This document shows, piece after piece, positions 30,507-64,000 of a DNA stretch of 64,000 bases. The DNA is taken from sequence record KP869111, one strand, 5' to 3'. The position numbers and the translations under genes were made by a program. Position 1 is the first letter of the stretch, and each line of letters begins with the position of its first letter. This DNA is from Escherichia coli O157 typing phage 13. The notes beneath the pieces were generated by a model. That model was not told the origin of the DNA and did not search any database. It saw nothing but the letters and a program-made list of their open reading frames with translations.

Positions 30507-30932
30507 TTATACTCTAGGCTTTTGAGCTTGTTTGGTATTGGATTCCCATGCGGCTTTGGTAATTTTGTTAGTGGCATAACCAAAGGCATTAGATAGAACA
30601 CCTTTAGAGTTGAATACATCCAATCCAATAAGTACACCGGCTGTGTTAAATTTAGGAGCAAAGTACGCATTAGTTTTAGAAAGAGCTTTTTTCAATTCNN
30701 NNNNNNNNNNNNNNNNNNNNNNNNNNNNNNNNNNNNNNNNNNNNNNNNNNNNNNNNNNNNNNNNNNNNNNNNNNNNNNNNNNNNNNNNNNNNNNAGGGTC
30801 TTGAACCAAACCATCAAAAACGCCTTTACTATTTACTTTATATGTTACTTTGGGATTTTTACCTTCTTCGATAGCAGCTTTCTGTTCCGCAGATAATGTA
30901 ACTTCAGTGATAAACTCCTGATATGTTTTCAT
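30507..30932 (-). CDS. Internal head protein-like (capsid targeting sequence); interior masked by N-run
   Basis: Starts MKTYQEFITEV, the T4 internal-protein capsid-targeting leader; 96 N (30699-30794) inside the ORF. Confidence 0.6.
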   Translation of the reverse strand: MKTYQEFITEVTLSAEQKAAIEEGKNPKVTYKVNSKGVFDGLVQDPXXXXXXXXXXXXXXXXXXXXXXXXXXXXXXXXELKKALSKTNAYFAPKFNTAGVLIGLDVFNSKGVLSNAFGYATNKITKAAWESNTKQAQKPRV

Positions 30933-30940
30933 TTTGTTCC

Positions 30941-31354
30941 TTAGTAAATTGATTTACCATAGTATTTGTACCAAGTCGGACGTTGAGCAATTTTTTCATC
31001 TAAGCGTGCTTGACTTATCGCAATGGACGCTTCGGACGGGACGTAATTATTACGAAATTCTACAGGAATGTCGGAAATATCCTGGACTGTCGTGTCCTTG
31101 ATTTTGAAACCACGTTTCAAGCATTCGGCGATTAGCTCGATTTGACGTAAACGTAAAAATTCGAGTTTGTCGTAAAAGAATGTTACGTGACCTGTGCCTA
31201 AGATAAATGTTGGAGAGATTTTAAAATCCTTTACACGTTTACCGTTTTGAACATGTTTACGGACTGCACCAAATACGCGTGGTAATTCACGATACTCAGC
31301 CATAAGATGTTGGTCGGACAGTTCAGAAACAAGTGTTAAATTGATACGAGTCAT
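30941..31354 (-). CDS. denV: Endonuclease V (pyrimidine dimer DNA glycosylase) DenV
   Basis: Track ORF 30941-31366; ATG at 31354 gives [35 protein letters not shown], near-identical to recalled T4 DenV (138 aa). Confidence 0.9.
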
Positions 31355-31381
31355 AATTTCCTCCAAGTAGTTGATGAATGT

Positions 31382-31411
31382 ATAGTATCAAAACTCTTGG
31401 AGGAAGTAAAC
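31382..31411 (-). promoter_or_regulatory. T4-type early promoter upstream of denV
   Basis: Minus strand GTTTAC (31411-31406), 18-nt spacer, TACTAT (31387-31382). Confidence 0.5.
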
Positions 31412-31412
31412 A

Positions 31413-31694
31413 CTATTTTTCTGAAGCGCCTGAAATATATTTTTCAAGACGTTGTTTCATCAGCGAGCCGTTCTTAGCGATTTCTTCCGGTTTATCGCAC
31501 ATACGCAACAAGGCTTCAAGCTTAACGATATCACTGGTGCGCTCAAATTTGCGAGTATCTATCTTACTGGCAAGTTCAGAAATACGTGCTAATAGACTTT
31601 CAGCTTCAACCAAAGCTGCACCTAGCTTAGTTGCAAATGTGTCAGTAGCTTCGTTAAGAATAGATTCTGATAAAAATTCACTATATGTTTTCAT
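31413..31694 (-). CDS. Internal head protein-like (capsid targeting sequence)
   Basis: ATG at 31694 overlaps the e stop (ATGA) and gives [11 protein letters not shown]..., 93 aa. Confidence 0.55.
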
Positions 31695-32179
31695 ATATAC
31701 GCTTTCCAAGTTCCTGTTTTAAATGTTGAGATTACGCGTTTCGCTCGATTAGGTGTCTGACGGTACCATTTAGATTGGGCTAGATTTACTGCCGCTTCAT
31801 CCCAACGTTTCTGTTGAAGCATACGAAGAGAATTAGTAAAACCAGCGACGCCTGCTACACCCATTTGGAAGACCATATTGACCAATGCACATCGACGAAC
31901 CGCATCTAAAGAATCATATACCGGTTTAAGTTTAGCATTACCCAAGATTCCGCGAACGGCTTTATCAACGTCTTCATTAAATAGCTTTTCAGCCTCATCA
32001 AGGGTAATTGTACCGTTGCATTTACGTCCGATCATTCTGTCAAGTTCAGCTTTAGCTACGGCTAAAGACGGGTTCTTTGTTACTAAATGGCCTATGCCAA
32101 TCGTCCAAAAGCCTTCAGTGTCTTTGTATAAAGTCAGTCTAAGACCTTCGTCATTACGAAGCATTTCAAATATATTCAT
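31691..32179 (-). CDS. e: Lysozyme (endolysin) e
   Basis: Track ORF 31691-32191; ATG at 32179 preceded by GGGAGGT gives [31 protein letters not shown], near-identical to recalled T4 lysozyme. Confidence 0.93.
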
Positions 32180-32180
32180 A

Positions 32181-32206
32181 ATACCTCCCACGTTTATAGG
32201 AGGTAT
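32181..32206 (-). promoter_or_regulatory. Hairpin sequestering the e gene Shine-Dalgarno, with late-promoter-like sequence in the loop
   Basis: Minus strand ATACCTCC-TATAAACGTG-GGAGGTAT; the 3' arm is the Shine-Dalgarno; loop reads TATAAACG (6/8 match to TATAAATA). Confidence 0.5.
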
Positions 32207-32213
32207 TTATTAC

Positions 32214-32669
32214 TTATAGGATGGTAGTGAGCACCTTATATAATGATTTACCCATTACATATTCCCATTGAGAAGGTTTAATTAAAGCGAATGCATCAAA
32301 TTCAGGAATCTGTCGTCCGTCTGGGAATGTATGATAGGAATTACAAACACTGTTTCTGAATTGCTCGTGCTCTACAGGGATGGTATATAGGAACAGATGA
32401 ATATTCTTATTGTCTGAGTAATGATGTTCACCTAGGTCTTTCAGGAAGGCAGGGTCATATTGTGTAAACCCAGTTTCTTCTTCGCATTCACGAATAGCGG
32501 CTTCAATAGGAGATTCGCCAGGTTCGACACGGCCTTTAGGAATATCCCACCGATGAGTTAATGCACCTTTAGGACGAGAACCAGTTACACGCCCCATGAA
32601 TAACTCTTTATCTTCGGTAAGGAAAATAATACCGGCTGATAGCTCTTTCACTTTATTTTTCTTACTCAT
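32214..32669 (-). CDS. nudE: Nudix hydrolase NudE
   Basis: 151 aa, the T4 NudE length; Nudix box GRVEPGESPIEAAIRECEEETG. Confidence 0.85.
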   Translation of the reverse strand: MSKKNKVKELSAGIIFLTEDKELFMGRVTGSRPKGALTHRWDIPKGRVEPGESPIEAAIRECEEETGFTQYDPAFLKDLGEHHYSDNKNIHLFLYTIPVEHEQFRNSVCNSYHTFPDGRQIPEFDAFALIKPSQWEYVMGKSLYKVLTTIL

Positions 32670-32988
32670 CANNNNNNNNNNNNNNNNNNNNNNNNNNNNN
32701 NNNNNNNNNNNNNNNNNNNNNNNNNNNNNNNNNNNNNNNNNNNNNNNNTCGGTCCCATGATTTGGCCATTAATTCGGACATAAATTCTTCAATGCGCGTT
32801 TCTTTAGATGGACTTTCACTATTAGAGACCGCAAGTTTGTAATCTGCAATAGGACAGAACATATCAAGGTCCGTATTAAGGTCGTCTTTGATTTTTTCTT
32901 CTGACACATCTTTATCGTATGTGTACAGATAACTATCACATGATTCTGATTTAATGTAAATTGCTATACTCATCTCAAATTCCTGCAT
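32662..32988 (-). CDS. Hypothetical protein (C-terminal part masked by N-run)
   Basis: 108 aa track ORF; 77 N (32672-32748) cover its 3' end and the nudE 5' leader, so the true end is unknown. Confidence 0.35.
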   Translation of the reverse strand: MQEFEMSIAIYIKSESCDSYLYTYDKDVSEEKIKDDLNTDLDMFCPIADYKLAVSNSESPSKETRIEEFMSELMAKSWDRXXXXXXXXXXXXXXXXXXXXXXXXXXDE

Positions 32989-33461
32989 TCGGTAATAAAA
33001 CGTTCAACTTCATTATTCTTGGCCTTTATCTTGTCTTTATGTTCTTGTAAACTACTTTTAATAAGATTAATAATGATGGCGGCGGTACCGCCGCCAATGA
33101 TGCCACCAACAACACTTATGATACTAGATGCTAATAAGATAGCAATAATATCAACAAAACTGAAAGAACTCACCTTAGTACTAAAAAACCATACCGACGG
33201 TGCAAATATAATCCATCCTGTTATCCATTGGCACTTATTGAAAAACTTTTCAAGATCAGCTTGAGTTGTTCGTATTACTTCATCGATAGGTTGATATCCA
33301 TTAATGTATCTGTTCACAATAATACCTGCTGGCTGGTCGATTTTAAATTCTTGGCAAATACGTTTCACTAAGTAGGATGGACATCCTGTCCAATCTACTG
33401 AATAGTATGAAATACCTTCATTGCCATCGTCTATATTAGACCAATATGTTTTGTTAATCAT
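32970..33461 (-). CDS. Hypothetical membrane protein
   Basis: 163 aa; hydrophobic segments WITGWIIFAPSVWFF and IIAILLASSIISVVGGIIGGGTAAIIINLI. Confidence 0.5.
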   Translation of the reverse strand: MINKTYWSNIDDGNEGISYYSVDWTGCPSYLVKRICQEFKIDQPAGIIVNRYINGYQPIDEVIRTTQADLEKFFNKCQWITGWIIFAPSVWFFSTKVSSFSFVDIIAILLASSIISVVGGIIGGGTAAIIINLIKSSLQEHKDKIKAKNNEVERFITECRNLR

Positions 33462-34147
33462 TACCAGCCTTCCATAGGGAATTCCAGATAAACTTGGGTA
33501 TTGACACGAATTTCATTGGTAATCTTTTTAACTCGGTCTGTATTACGAGATACACGTCCGAACCAACGCCATCCATTACTAATTGCACGAGAACCAGTGT
33601 GCCATGTTTGCCAATCAAACTGAAGAAGAGTACGATCTGGAGCTTCCCATTTCTCTAGTTCGCCTTTTTCGATTTTTTCGAGGACTTCTTTGTGCCACTG
33701 GCGATAGATAAGTTCGCCATCAGGAATCTGACTGAACTCTGCAGTTCCTGTTGCAAAATGAGTAGGACACACATCAGCGTTAACAAGACCAAGAATATGT
33801 TCAGACAAATAGCGAGGATTGTCATAGTCAGGTTGTCCTGCAGTAATAAAATGTTGACCAACCGGAATATCCGGGCGTGGTACGTCATCATGGTGATAAC
33901 CAGGAATAGCAGGATACCAACCAGGCATCAGCATATGGACTCGTGAATCAAATACTACATCCGAGTCTTTCCAATCGTCAGGGAGATTTTGGATAAAGCT
34001 ACGAGTAATTGGACCGCCGTTATCAAAAGCAAAATTCAAATCGCAATTAAAGAACATAGGCTCGTTTTTAATCTGGTCATTTTTAATCGCATGAGCAAAA
34101 CCACCTACTGCACGAGCTTGACTATTAAACACTTTAGAACTATTCAT
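33461..34147 (-). CDS. Hypothetical protein (possible metal-dependent oxygenase-like fold, unverified)
   Basis: 228 aa; His/Asp-rich segment PGYHHDDVPRPD and later WHTGSR; no confident family assignment from sequence alone. Confidence 0.5.
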   Translation of the reverse strand: MNSSKVFNSQARAVGGFAHAIKNDQIKNEPMFFNCDLNFAFDNGGPITRSFIQNLPDDWKDSDVVFDSRVHMLMPGWYPAIPGYHHDDVPRPDIPVGQHFITAGQPDYDNPRYLSEHILGLVNADVCPTHFATGTAEFSQIPDGELIYRQWHKEVLEKIEKGELEKWEAPDRTLLQFDWQTWHTGSRAISNGWRWFGRVSRNTDRVKKITNEIRVNTQVYLEFPMEGW

Positions 34148-34148
34148 A

Positions 34149-34454
34149 TTATTTTCCTCGACATTCTTTAATGAAATTTTCTAGATTGGTAGATTCAATA
34201 GCTTTTTTACGAGCTTCTGCGTGTTCTTCTTCAGACAATTTACATTTATAATTGACCCAGACGTTATGGTCGAAACTAGTCGTGGCATATAATAACAATG
34301 CTCCAACGAATAGCAAAAACGGCGATAAGAATACAAAACCAGGAACACCATCCATACTGTAAGCCTTTTGTAATACTGCAACAGAAAGAGCTGCGTAAAA
34401 AAGTGATACAAATATTGTTAAAAGACCAATTCGGTTGGTTTCGCCTAATTTCAT
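34149..34454 (-). CDS. Hypothetical membrane protein
   Basis: 101 aa; two hydrophobic helices then a charged C-terminus; first gene after the promoter at 34483-34512. Confidence 0.5.
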   Translation of the reverse strand: MKLGETNRIGLLTIFVSLFYAALSVAVLQKAYSMDGVPGFVFLSPFLLFVGALLLYATTSFDHNVWVNYKCKLSEEEHAEARKKAIESTNLENFIKECRGK

Positions 34455-34482
34455 AATATTCTCCTCATGTTTTAATAGGACT

Positions 34483-34512
34483 ACTATAACATAGCCCTAT
34501 CAAGATGTAAAC
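34483..34512 (-). promoter_or_regulatory. T4-type early promoter inside a palindromic cassette (copy of 24222-24260)
   Basis: Minus strand GTTTACATCTTGATAGGGCTATGTTATAGTAGTCCTA; 35 of 37 nt identical to the cassette at 24222-24260. Confidence 0.6.
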
Positions 34513-34515
34513 TAC

Positions 34516-34803
34516 TTACAGAAGAGTTTTTGCAATAATTTTAAGCTGAGCTACAGAAATATGCTTAGCTTTAAACAGTGCGGTCTCTTCAGCCGGAGAG
34601 ATAACAATAGTAGCGCCATCTTTCTTAGCAGACCATCCATCCCCTAAGTAAACAGTACCTTTTACTTCTTCGCCGTCAACCAGACTAATCATTGGTTTAC
34701 CCTCACGTCCTTTATTTGCTTTAATAACTTCGGAAGTAAGGGTTGCTTCGGTCAGAGTAGAAACGTTAGCAACAGGTGATATAAATTCTTTATAGGTTTT
34801 CAT
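34516..34803 (-). CDS. ipI: Internal protein I-like (capsid targeting sequence)
   Basis: 95 aa (the T4 IPI precursor length); starts MKTYKEFISPV with a TLTE-A protease-type site; sits next to 57B as ipI does in T4. Confidence 0.6.
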   Translation of the reverse strand: MKTYKEFISPVANVSTLTEATLTSEVIKANKGREGKPMISLVDGEEVKGTVYLGDGWSAKKDGATIVISPAEETALFKAKHISVAQLKIIAKTLL

Positions 34804-34837: not shown

Positions 34838-34867
34838 ATAGTATCACACCATCATACTTATGTAAAC
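34838..34867 (-). promoter_or_regulatory. T4-type early promoter upstream of the ipI-like gene
   Basis: Minus strand GTTTAC (34867-34862), 18-nt spacer, TACTAT (34843-34838). Confidence 0.5.
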
Positions 34868-35570: not shown

Positions 35571-36305
35571 TTACCTTAAGATTGTTTCAATTTTAGAATA
35601 AAGCTCTTCTAAAGAGCCGTCGTTTGTAATAACTAAATCGCCTTCTTCAATAGGCAACCCAGCTTCTGTAATATGTTTATCAGTGGATTCCGTACCAGAG
35701 CGAACCACATGAATAACTGTAGCACCCATCGCTCTAGCGGTTTCCATTTCATGGACTTGGCGTGTATCGGTTACAACATAGTAATCGAAATCACTTCCAA
35801 TATAATCCATATAGTTTAATGCAAAAAGTTTAACCCAATACATACGGTCAAATAAATTAACGACAACATCCGTACCGAGGGCTTGCATAAGACGGCGGAT
35901 TGACCATGTGTCGTTGATATTATTTATAGCTTCACGCAGGGCTTCATACGGTTTAATATCTAGATATGAATACCCACCTTCTAAGGATGATAATACTTTA
36001 ACATTATTAATTGGTAAATATTGACTTTGTAAATAAATTAGCGCTTCTTCCAATAATTCAATAACATCCAACTTATTGAGATTTAATGGTGTTTCACGGT
36101 CATATCCGACACCTTCAAAGTATTCGTATTTCAACTCTGTGAATACATTAGGGTTTTCGGCATGTTTACGTCCCCAGGCTATTGCTAGAGCGTCTTTAAT
36201 CGGATATGCCAATTGGTATTTTACGGATTTAAAGTTTGAATTGATGTAATCAGCAGTGGTGTCTTTACCACTACGTTTGACGCCACTTAAAAAGATTAGC
36301 TCCAT
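35571..36305 (-). CDS. 1: Deoxynucleoside monophosphate kinase gp1
   Basis: 244 aa; MELIFLSGVKRSGKDTTADY... matches recalled T4 gp1 (241 aa). Confidence 0.93.
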   Translation of the reverse strand: MELIFLSGVKRSGKDTTADYINSNFKSVKYQLAYPIKDALAIAWGRKHAENPNVFTELKYEYFEGVGYDRETPLNLNKLDVIELLEEALIYLQSQYLPINNVKVLSSLEGGYSYLDIKPYEALREAINNINDTWSIRRLMQALGTDVVVNLFDRMYWVKLFALNYMDYIGSDFDYYVVTDTRQVHEMETARAMGATVIHVVRSGTESTDKHITEAGLPIEEGDLVITNDGSLEELYSKIETILR

Positions 36306-50987: not shown

Positions 50988-52639
50988 GTAATAACAATAC
51001 ATACCAACACGTTTCAAACGAATCCATTTACGTTGAATTCGACCCTACGGGGTCGAATTTTCCAGATACAGTCACTAATGTCCAAGCCGCATTAGCTGCT
51101 ATTTCTCCTTCAGGTGTTAATGGTGTACCGGAAGCAACAACTACTACACCAGGAATTATTCAAATAGCTACTCCACAAGAAGTTATTGATGGACTAGATA
51201 ATAGTAAAGCTGTTACTCCGGCATCACTGAATGCTCGTCTACAATATCCTAATGCAACCGAAACTCAATATGGCTTAACTCGTTATGCTACTGAAGATGA
51301 AGCAGTAACAGGAACTATTGACGATGCATCAATTACTCCGCTTAAATTGAATCAAAAAATAGACAATGTATTCCAGACAAAAGTGTCAACAGAAGCATCA
51401 AATGGTGTAATTAAAATTTCGACTTCTGCTGCGGCATTAGCCGGTTCTGACGATACGACGGCAATGACTCCGTTAAAAACGCAACAATTGGCAATTAAAC
51501 TTATTTCGCAAATTGCTCCAAATAATAGTGACGCCACTGAATCTATTACCGGTGTTGTTCGTTTGGCTACAGTTGCTCAAGCGCAACAAGGCACCCTGCG
51601 TGAAGGCTATGCAATTTCACCTTATACCTTTATGAATTCAGTAGCATCAGAAACTAATAAAGGTGTCGTTAAACTAGGGACACAGACTGAAGTAAATAGT
51701 AACAACTCTTCAGTTGTAGTGACCGGCGCAACATTAAACGNNNNNNNNNNNNNNNNNNNNNNNNNNNNNNNNNNNNNNNNNNNNNNNNNNNNNNNNNNNN
51801 NNNNNNNNNNNNNNCGTGGGGCTACAACTTCTTTACGTGGAGTTGTTCGTTTAACTACACAAGCTGGTAGCCAATCAGGTGGTGATGGTTCTTCTGCCCT
51901 TGCTTGGAATGCTGATGTTATCCACCAACGAGGCGGACAAACTATTAATGGCACGCTTCGCATTAATAATACGTTGACTGTTGGTTCTGGTGGCGCTAAT
52001 ATAACGGGTAATGTCAATATGACCGGTGGTTATATTCAAGGCAATCGTATTGTGACTCAAAATGAATTAGACCGAATTCTCCCAGTTGGCGCTATTACAA
52101 TGTGGGCTGCAGATAGTTTACCGAGTTCTGACTGGCGCTTCTGTCACGGTGGGACCGTTTCTGCTTCAGAATGTCCGGTATATGCTTCCAGAATTGGGAC
52201 ACGATATGGCGGTAGTTCTTCTAACCCAGGCTTGCCTGATATGCGTGGATTATTTGTTCGCGGCTCAGGTCGTGGCTCTCACTTAACAAATCCAAATGTT
52301 AATGGTAATGACCAGTTTGGTAAGCCTAGATTAGGTGTAGGTTGTACCGGTGGATATGTCGGTGAAGTGCAAAAACAACAGATGTCATATCATAAGCATG
52401 CTGGCGGTTTTGGTGAACATGATGATTCTGGAGCATTCGGTAATACCCGTAGATCAAATTTTGTTGGTACACGTAAAGGACTTGACTGGGATAACCGTTC
52501 ATACTTCACCAATGACGGATATGAAATTGACCCGGCATCACAACGAAATTCCAAATATACATTAAATCGTCCTGAATTAATTGGAAATGAAACACGTCCA
52601 TGGAACATTTCTTTAAACTATATCATTAAGGTAAAATAA
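50984..52639 (+). CDS. 12: Short tail fiber gp12 (interior partly masked by N-run)
   Basis: 551 aa including 74 N (51741-51814); synteny between gp11 and wac; repetitive Gly/Thr-rich fibre sequence. Confidence 0.88.
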
Positions 52640-61710: not shown

Positions 61711-63282
61711 ATGAAATTTAATATCTTAAGTTTGTTTGCTCCATGGGCAAAAATGGACGAACGTGATTACAAAGACCAAGAAAAAGAAAATTTAGAATCG
61801 ATCACCGCACCAAAATTAGACGACGGCGCTAAAGAATACGAAGTATCTGAAAATGAAGCACAGCAAACATATAATGCTATGTTTCAGAGAATGTTCGGTA
61901 GCCAAGAACCAGGGCTCAAATCAACGCGTGAATTAATCGATACGTATCGAAATTTGATGACGAACTATGAAGTGGATAATGCAGTCTCTGAAATAGTTTC
62001 CGATGCTATCGTATATGAAGATGATACAGAAGTCGTTTCTATAAATTTAGACAACACAAAATTTAGTCCAAATATCAAATCAATGATGTTGGATGAATTT
62101 AACGAAGTGTTAAATCATTTATCTTTCCAACGTAAAGGTTCAGACCATTTTAGACGTTGGTACGTAGATTCTCGAATTTTCTTCCATAAAATTATTGACC
62201 CTAAACGCCCTAAAGAAGGTATTAAAGAGCTTCGTCGTTTAGACCCACGTCAAGTTCAATATGTCCGTGAAGTTATTACAACCACTGAAGCTGGTGTTAA
62301 AATAGTCAAGGGTTATAAAGAATATTTCATTTATGACACATCACACGAATCTTATGCTTGTGATGGTCGCATATATGAAGCTGGCACAAAAATAAAAATC
62401 CCTAAAGCCGCGATTGTTTATGCCCATTCTGGTTTAGTTGATTGTTGTGGTAAAAATATCATTGGTTATTTGCATCGGGCTATTAAGCCGGCGAACCAAT
62501 TAAAACTTCTTGAAGATGCAGTCGTAATTTATCGTATTACTCGTGCTCCCGATCGTCGTGTATGGTACGTTGATACAGGTAATATGCCTTCAAGAAAAGC
62601 AGCAGAACATATGCAACATGTTATGAATACGATGAAAAACCGTATTGCATATGATGCTACTACAGGCAAGATTAAAAACCAGCAGCATATTATGTCGATG
62701 ACCGAAGATTATTGGTTACAACGACGTGATGGTAAAGCAGTAACAGAAGTTGATACATTACCAGGTGCAGATAATACCGGAAATATGGAAGATGTACGTT
62801 GGTTCCGTAATGCGCTTTATATGGCTTTACGTATTCCTATTACCCGTATTCCAAGTGACCAAGGTGGTATACAGTTTGATGCTGGTACTTCTATTACACG
62901 AGATGAATTATCATTTGGTAAATTTATTCGTGAGCTGCAACATAAATTTGAAGAGATATTCCTAGACCCGCTTAAAACTAATTTAATTCTTAAAGGAATT
63001 ATTACAGAAGATGAGTGGAATGATGAAATAAATAATATTAAGATAAAATTTCATCGGGATAGTTATTTCTCGGAATTAAAGGATGCTGAGATTCTGGAGC
63101 GTCGCATTAATATGCTTCAGATGGCCGAACCATTTATTGGTAAATATATTTCTCACAGAACAGCTATGAAAGATATTCTTCAGATGTCTGACGAGGAAAT
63201 TGAACAAGAGGCTAAGCAAATTGAAGAAGAGTCGAAAGAGGCTCGTTTCCAAGACCCCGACCAAGAACAAGAGGATTTTTAA
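61711..63282 (+). CDS. 20: Portal vertex protein gp20
   Basis: 523 aa (T4 gp20 is 524 aa); synteny. Confidence 0.95.
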
Positions 63283-63512
63283 TGGACGATTTAATTCAAG
63301 CTATTAAATCAAACGACCTCGTTGCTACTCGAAAGTTTTTTGAAAGTGCAATGGCAGAAAAAACGGTTCGTTTGATTGAAGCACGCAAAGCAGAAATCGC
63401 TTCTCAATTTTTGATTGAAGGCGAAGAACCTGAAGAAGAAAAGAAAGCTTCGGAAGACGACGCTGATGAAGGCGATGACGACGAAGACGAAGATGATGAG
63501 GACGATGAATAA
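63282..63512 (+). CDS. 67: Prohead core protein gp67
   Basis: 76 aa with a highly acidic C-terminus ([18 protein letters not shown]); synteny. Confidence 0.8.
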
Positions 63513-63937
63513 TGTATCTTATCCCTGAATCTTATGAATTGGTACTCGAAAATGTCGAAGCACTTATTCCTGAAGCACAGGGCCGAATCGATGCATTGTC
63601 TTCTGCTCTCGATATTGACGATATAAATACTATTATCGAGAACATGCTTGAAACTGAAACGGATTTAGCTGTTGCAATGGCTTCCATTATTAATGAAGAA
63701 CAGTTAAACGAGTTTATCGTTAAACATGTTTCTTCTCGTGGTGAAGTCACCCGCACTAAAGACCGTAAAACTCGTGAACGTAACGCGTTCCAAACAACCG
63801 GTCTTTCTAAAGCAAAACGTAGACAAATCGCTCGTAAGGTCGTTAAAGCTAAAAAAGCTAACCCTTCAGGCCAAGTTAAAGGCTTGCGTAAGCGTAAAAA
63901 AGCTCTTAAACGTCGTAAAGCATTAGGATTAAGCTAA
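63512..63937 (+). CDS. 68: Prohead core protein gp68
   Basis: 141 aa, identical length to T4 gp68; basic C-terminus; synteny. Confidence 0.85.
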
Positions 63938-64000
63938 TGAATAAACCCGAGTTACTTATTGAAACTTGGGGTCAACCCGGTGAGATTATTGATGGCGTTC
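63937..64000 (+). CDS. 21: Prohead core scaffold protein and protease gp21, N-terminal fragment (continues beyond window)
   Basis: ATG overlapping the gp68 stop gives [21 protein letters not shown], matching recalled T4 gp21 N-terminus. Confidence 0.75.
   Translation, partial: MNKPELLIETWGQPGEIIDGV

Follow-up and report, generated by a model that had tools for sequence, protein, structure and literature searches.

In phage T4, the first 10 residues of internal protein IPIII are enough to load foreign proteins into the head, and mutations in this leader have assigned Tyr4 and Phe7 to targeting and position 8 and Glu10 to processing (PMC9026906). IPI*, the mature form of IPI, is an injected inhibitor of the type IV restriction enzyme GmrS/GmrD (PMC9026906), and T4 IPII acts on fused GmrSD/BrxU (bioRxiv 10.1101/2023.04.06.535777). 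According to the 2025 HIDEN-SEQ preprint, Bas37_0260 acts on McrBC (bioRxiv 10.1101/2025.11.20.689424). T4 IPIII is needed on Escherichia coli ECOR17, where expressing the protein without its leader in the host rescues the defect. A role against defence has so far been assigned to four T-even internal proteins (IPI, IPII, Bas37_0260, and IPIII), and the targets of the first three are all type IV restriction enzymes. Since internal proteins arrive with the DNA, they can disarm defences that act before phage gene expression. We analyzed a 64,000-nucleotide (nt) stretch of the genome of E. coli O157 typing phage 13 (KP869111; hereafter, the window), in which a preliminary description made from the sequence alone had pointed to three open reading frames (ORFs) carrying the T4 capsid-targeting leader, as follows.

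30507-30932, minus strand: ORF1, RB69ORF123c family; leader MKTYQEFITE, with gp21 predicted to cut after ITE10
31413-31694, minus strand: ORF2, ip5-family internal head protein of 93 amino acids (aa); candidate gp21 sites LSE10 and LNE15; predicted to be all-helical
34516-34803, minus strand: ORF3, ipI; N-terminus MKTYKEFISP; precursor of 95 aa, whose 19-aa leader ends in LTE, and mature IPI* of 76 aa

All three ORFs were present at these coordinates on the minus strand, which the preliminary description did not specify, and with the N-termini first quoted for them. We consider it probable that they encode T4-type internal proteins that would be packaged through the leader, cut by gp21, and injected, with ORF1 and ORF2 delivering cargo directed against host defences. 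A six-frame scan of the window with the motif MK[TS][YF].[EQ]F gave three matches, which were the starts of ORF1, ORF2, and ORF3, and no others. The same motif occurred on average 0.01 times, and at most once, in 200 shuffles of the window; thus, the leader is present far beyond chance. Every one of the motifs opens a conserved, annotated gene, and spurious ORFs were ruled out by conservation, by annotation in many records, and by synteny.

Position 4 is aromatic and position 7 is Phe in all three leaders, and the positions mapped in T4 IPIII (4, 7, 8, and 10) are all retained in ORF1 and ORF2. An L/I-x-E sequence, identified as a sequence motif only, ends each leader: ITE10 in ORF1, LSE10 and LNE15 in ORF2, and LTE19 in ORF3. 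For ORF3, the start of the leader was quoted correctly but its end was not, since Pro10 bars cutting at position 10 and LTE19 ends a 19-residue leader, as in T4 IPI. The predicted mature parts are small (8-11 kDa), and those of ORF1 and ORF3 are basic, as are the T4 internal proteins. Pairwise BLASTP among the three ORFs aligned only the first 10-25 residues, and hhalign comparison of the leaderless parts with one another gave probabilities below 3%, which agrees with the earlier statement that the bodies differ from each other.

The phage is a Mosigvirus, a member of the RB69 group of T4-like phages, and E. coli O157 typing phages 6 and 3 match the window at 99.9-100% identity. All genes between 28 and 36 kb lie on the minus strand in a T4-like order (regB, vs genes, denV, lysozyme e, nudE, ..., ipI, 57B, 57A, gene 1, gene 3), and the right end of the window holds head genes 20, 67, and 68 and the beginning of gene 21. 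The features that bear on packaging and on the surroundings of ORF1 and ORF2 are listed below.

63282-63937, plus strand: genes 67 and 68, prohead core proteins, the scaffold part that leader-bearing proteins are thought to bind
63937-64000, plus strand: the start (21 codons) of prohead protease gene 21, cut off by the end of the window; tail identical to typing phage 6
30941-31366, minus strand: denV (endonuclease V), adjoining ORF1
31691-32191, minus strand: gene e (lysozyme), whose stop codon overlaps the ORF2 start (ATGA)

Typing phage 6, the nearest relative, encodes the scaffold protein gp22 and a complete gp21 with 94% identity to that of T4 across the 184 aa compared. The core and protease genes that match T4-type internal proteins are thus present: the window has gp67, gp68, and the first part of gene 21, and the relative has gp22 and the complete gp21. 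Together with the retained targeting and processing residues and the L/I-x-E sites, these genes uphold the T4-type reading of the three ORFs.

In the mechanism that we propose, the leader (MKT-Y-x-E-F-I/L...) would bind the nascent protein to the gp22/gp67/gp68 scaffolding core, and the protein would be enclosed in the prohead. The protease gp21 would then cut after L/I-x-E, at ITE10 in ORF1, at LNE15 and possibly LSE10 too in ORF2, and at LTE19 in ORF3, and the small mature proteins would stay in the DNA-filled head until injected with the genome. Because they would enter with the genome, the mature proteins would be in the cell before any phage gene expression. Mature IPI* from ORF3 would block GmrS/GmrD, an attacker of DNA with sugar-modified cytosine, and ORF1 and ORF2, as unrelated cargo domains on the same leader, would neutralise other strain-specific first-line host defences. 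Judging from their leaders, ORF1 and ORF2 are very probably packaged, and we infer their cleavage and injection from sequence as well. By analogy with the characterized internal proteins, an anti-defence function of these two ORFs is a real possibility, to which we give slightly less than an even chance.

ORF3 is almost certainly IPI, the ortholog of T4 IPI. Residues 20-95 matched the Pfam family PF11634 (IPI_T4) at E=1.3e-50 with 169.7 bits (cut-off 25); ORF1 and ORF2, in contrast, fall outside this family. The same residues are identical at 72 of 76 positions to the solved IPI* structure (PDB 2JUB, 76 residues), whose mature chain begins at what is residue 20 of ORF3, directly after LTE19. 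The identity to T4 ipI is 88% over the full length. Both precursors have 95 aa and a 19-aa leader ending in (I/L)TE, and ORF3 follows gene 57B as ipI does in T4. They differ by four substitutions in the mature part, and the leaders differ at several positions (MKTYKEFISPVANVSTLTE versus MKTFKEFTSTTTPVSTITE). An early-type promoter is also common to the two loci.

34838-34866, minus strand: early-type promoter (TTTACA, 17 nt, TG-TACTAT) that precedes ipI and is conserved with its counterpart ahead of T4 ipI

The sequence shared by the promoters of ORF3 and T4 ipI reads GTTTACA...TGATACTAT, and a stem-loop overlapping the promoter in the window is weak (z = -0.8). Homologues of IPI were found in 291 phage records; the RefSeq label for ORF3 is 'internal virion protein / nuclease inhibitor', and the RB69 copy of IPI has already been noted in the literature (PMC13326640). 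Since its mature domain is 95% identical to T4 IPI*, ORF3 would be expected to inhibit GmrS/GmrD. Whereas T4 DNA carries glucosylated hydroxymethylcytosine, Mosigvirus DNA carries arabinosylated cytosine, and it is cut by the GmrSD-family enzyme BrxU (PMC13390438). The combination of arabinosylated DNA and its cleavage by a GmrSD-family enzyme is a plausible reason for a Mosigvirus to keep IPI. The preliminary description had treated the targets of all three ORFs as unknown. For ORF3 this does not stand, since an IPI ortholog is already explained by the known target of IPI*, GmrS/GmrD.

ORF1 starts 8 nt past the denV stop codon and is 97% identical to RB69ORF123c. A profile search matched it to phrog_3966, a family of unknown function, at E=4.5e-32, and the gene is generally annotated as hypothetical. 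The family is narrow: of its 90 phage records, 77 exceed 95% identity, and the other 13, from Dhakavirus-type phages including WG01, are about 35% identical. In an exhaustive HMMER search of 1.8 billion representatives with ORF1 as the query, the credible relatives were its own cluster and a cluster of 119-aa WG01-type proteins only; the other matches were long proteins aligned in multiple stretches and apparently repetitive, and were treated as spurious. WG01 ORF115 (119 aa) is 35% identical to ORF1, lies right after denV, and begins with MKTYQQFITE, so the leader has been conserved while the body diverged strongly. A cut after ITE10 would leave a mature ORF1 of 99 aa and 10.7 kDa with an isoelectric point (pI) of 9.7.

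These values refer to a 109-aa protein. In the window, ORF1 contains a run of N, in agreement with the earlier remark that one ORF is partly masked, with the qualification that the run has no counterpart in relatives.

30699-30794, no strand: run of 96 N inside ORF1, without counterpart in relatives; probably no protein sequence but a gap in the scaffold or a mask

The flanks of this run are directly adjacent in typing phages 6 and 3 (L001 3299|3300) at 100% identity, and the ORF there has 109 aa. In all 90 phage records, the homologue aligned as a single piece of ungapped length over at least 80% of the 109-aa query. Based on the contiguous flanks and the one-piece alignments, the real length of ORF1 is most likely 109 aa, and the 141-aa length is most likely an artefact of the N run. 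Two other runs were found in the window: 77 N at 32672-32748, where nudE meets the upstream gene, and 74 N at 51741-51814, inside the short-tail-fibre gene 12, each in place of 2 bases. Relative to typing phage 6, all three are net in-frame (+96, +75, and +72 nt) with flanks that are 100% identical; they may be scaffold gaps, masks, or hidden real sequence.

The metagenome-derived protein P0002, a 125-aa version of ORF1, has 16 extra N-terminal residues ahead of MKTYQEF; since such an extension would bury the leader, we suspect a miscalled start, not a real variant. NRG-P0074 (L003 1607-2276) has an extra 104-aa leader-bearing ORF beside ORF1, with 33% identity to ORF1 over 76 aa, part of which is leader. 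In WG01 (L007 884-3126), four leader-bearing ORFs surround denV, namely ORF118, an IPIII ortholog, ORF115, and ORF114.

ORF2 belongs, by its sequence, to the ip5/phrog_3499 family, and it is already annotated in databases as 'internal head protein'. The profile search matched positions 1-87 to phrog_3499 ('internal head protein') at E=1.2e-46. ORF2 is 47.6% identical over 84 aa to T2 ip5 and Bas37_0261 (E=1e-22 to 2e-23) and 48-51% identical to ip5 of T2, PP01, AR1, and relatives, and it occurs at more than 97% identity in about 230 phage records. At 48% identity, ORF2 and ip5 both keep MKT(Y/F)xEF and I/L-x-E at residue 15. The natural ORF2 variant P0006 (MKTYNEFLTVTTLNE|ATDTF) has lost E10 and retained LNE15, and ip5 has ITE15; a gp21 cut after residue 15 therefore seems likelier than one after residue 10. 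A cut after LNE15 would leave a mature protein of 78 aa and 8.6 kDa.

The ATGA overlap of the e stop codon and the ORF2 start indicates that ORF2 is probably co-transcribed with gene e and translationally coupled to it. This place next to the lysozyme gene is that of ipIII in T4. In contrast, ip5 of T2 and Bas37 directly follows 57B, at the ipI locus, which shows that one cargo gene occupies different internal-protein loci in different phages. At the ipI locus, ip5 is paired with ip7 in T2 (L006 2501-3136) and with the McrBC inhibitor Bas37_0260 in Bas37/KarlGJung (L011 1054-1621).

We compared the leaderless parts of ORF1 and ORF2 by hhalign with IPI, IPII, IPIII, ip7, Bas37_0260 (sequence taken from phage KarlGJung, MZ501089), and the extra leader-bearing cassette of typing phage 6. 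No relation of either mature part to these six was found (at most 2.8% in every pairing). BLASTP of ORF1 and ORF2 against T4 IPI, IPII, and IPIII aligned only the leader (residues 1-16), and the mature domains showed no homology to those of IPII and IPIII (hhalign at most 2.8%) or to that of Bas37_0260 (no BLASTP match past the leader; hhalign 0.1%). Neither ORF matched any Pfam or NCBIfam family. Thus, ORF1 and ORF2 resemble T4 IPII and IPIII in the leader (MKTYQEFITE in ORF1 versus MKTYQEFIAE) and in the neighbourhood (denV, ipII, ipIII, and e), and ORF1 is small and basic as they are; they are alike as leader-delivered cargo, yet they are not homologues. The resemblance to Bas37_0260 is of the same kind: that protein combines the T4 capsid-targeting leader with a small novel domain in a swappable cassette at the ipI locus, whereas its body is unrelated to ORF1, ORF2, and ORF3.

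The preliminary description had also proposed structure prediction of the mature domains. AlphaFold2 was run in single-sequence mode; an indexed search gave only close relatives for alignments. For ORF2, this yielded a plausible, all-helical model of three helices (predicted local distance difference test score, pLDDT, 72.8; predicted template modelling score, pTM, 0.34), for which Foldseek returned nothing under E=0.7 in BFVD or under E=3.7 in PDB, and hence no meaningful neighbour. The ORF1 model (pLDDT 49.4) was too poor for use.

A more specific form of the defence hypothesis can be put forward tentatively. In this form, ORF1 would be an injected inhibitor of new fold, directed against a defence that attacks arabinosylated or otherwise sugar-modified DNA, and ORF2/ip5 would neutralise a defence of the uropathogenic E. 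coli strain CFT073. The target of ORF1 may be a type IV restriction enzyme, for instance, or some other system of the first response that IPI, IPII, and Bas37_0260 do not cover; the ORF1 family is confined to Mosigvirus and Dhakavirus. The CFT073 part draws on the supplement of the HIDEN-SEQ preprint, in which transposon insertions in Bas37 ip5 show depletion on CFT073 as compared with K-12 (log2 fold change -2.09, adjusted p given as 0.00000) and not on CFE299 (-0.01) (bioRxiv 10.1101/2025.11.20.689424). The retrieved passages of the preprint make no mention of this ip5 signal.

Several observations weigh against the view that ORF1 and ORF2 are injected defence inhibitors. We found no published virion proteomics of any Mosigvirus or of RB69 covering these proteins, and their packaging is predicted from sequence. 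The exact late promoter TATAAATA is absent directly upstream of ORF1, ORF2, and ORF3, the closest exact site being inside gene 1 (35921-35928), and ORF1 and ORF2 each lack a separate promoter. With a pI of 6.3-8.1, mature ORF2 is close to neutral, in contrast to the basic T4 internal proteins. The leaderless parts of both ORFs lack similarity to internal proteins of known target and lack an informative fold match, and the anti-defence role is therefore an argument by analogy. Since T4 IPIII also affects head assembly (PMC9026906), some internal proteins may not be inhibitors of defence. The ip5 signal is one unvalidated screen value in a homologue with 48% identity and may be a polar effect, as insertions in the neighbouring 57B also drop (-1.56).

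The main rival explanation takes ORF1 and/or ORF2 to be packaged but structural, serving in the neutralisation of DNA charge, in DNA organisation, or in assembly of the prohead core, with no inhibition of defence. A T4 head contains about 360 copies of the internal proteins, which bind DNA when salt is low, and the strongly basic mature ORF1 (pI 9.7) would suit such a role; ORF2, however, is not basic. Without IPIII, T4 heads assemble at half the rate and the burst is smaller, yet T4 remains viable on the usual laboratory hosts when all three internal proteins are missing (PMC9026906). ORF1 is nearly invariant (more than 95% identity) in about 77 Mosigvirus-type records, which is less like a fast-evolving arms-race gene, but its patchy occurrence and that of ORF2, in swappable cassettes, fit an accessory function. 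Moreover, each T-even internal protein of resolved function is a defence inhibitor. On balance, we regard a purely structural role as unlikely.

A further alternative concerns the way in which leader-bearing genes may be exchanged. Gene shuffling in T4-type phages has been attributed to promoter early stem-loop (PeSL) elements (PMC2839356, PMC4122927), and one element of this type was recognised in the window.

34468-34518, minus strand: PeSL-like element just downstream of ipI; GTTTACA -35 box, then a 13-bp stem-loop containing the -10 box

This element was assigned to the PeSL type from sequence and fold alone (fold energy -17.2 kcal/mol, z = -3.2). It resembles the elements of described PeSL cassettes in its -35 box, in the stem-loop over the -10 box, and in having copies that flank a cassette in typing phage 6. 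That phage has a fourth leader-bearing ORF beside ipI (87 aa, MKTYKEFIAESESF..., phrog_13302), which the window lacks (34455-34520 versus L001 6898-7272); the cassette occurs in typing phage 3 as well and in about 30 further phages. The indel is bounded by PeSL-like 47-nt direct repeats (91% identical), both copies of which are present in typing phage 6, and also by the 30-nt leader-coding starts of two genes (90% identical DNA). Between nudE and ipI, the window also contains a 228-aa ORF (33461-34147, minus strand), which is annotated as a 2-oxoglutarate (2OG)-Fe(II) oxygenase in NRG-P0074 and as hypothetical in typing phages 3 and 6.

The leader of ORF1 and/or ORF2 could accordingly be a leftover of cassette shuffling, its coding sequence serving as a recombination site, while the proteins are packaged inefficiently and act as ordinary products synthesised in the cell after infection. 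The 90% identity of the 30-nt leader-coding stretches of adjacent cassettes and the repeat-flanked indel would fit, as would the placement of ORF1 after denV and of ORF2 in coupling to e, neither with its own or an exact late promoter. However, the targeting and cleavage residues have been kept across genera in which DNA and protein diverged to 35-48% identity, and the first 10 residues of the T4 leader by themselves package foreign proteins (PMC9026906), so we consider this explanation very improbable.

The three genes are expected content of a T4-like genome, and ORF1 and ORF2 belong to known, uncharacterised families. If ORF1 and ORF2 are internal proteins that combine the leader with cargo against host defences, they represent two more leader-bearing cargo families, both common in the RB69-group coliphages used in therapy and biocontrol. 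The pair has moderate practical value as candidates for anti-defence screening, and their targets, once found, would lengthen the list of injected anti-defence proteins and aid the prediction of host range.

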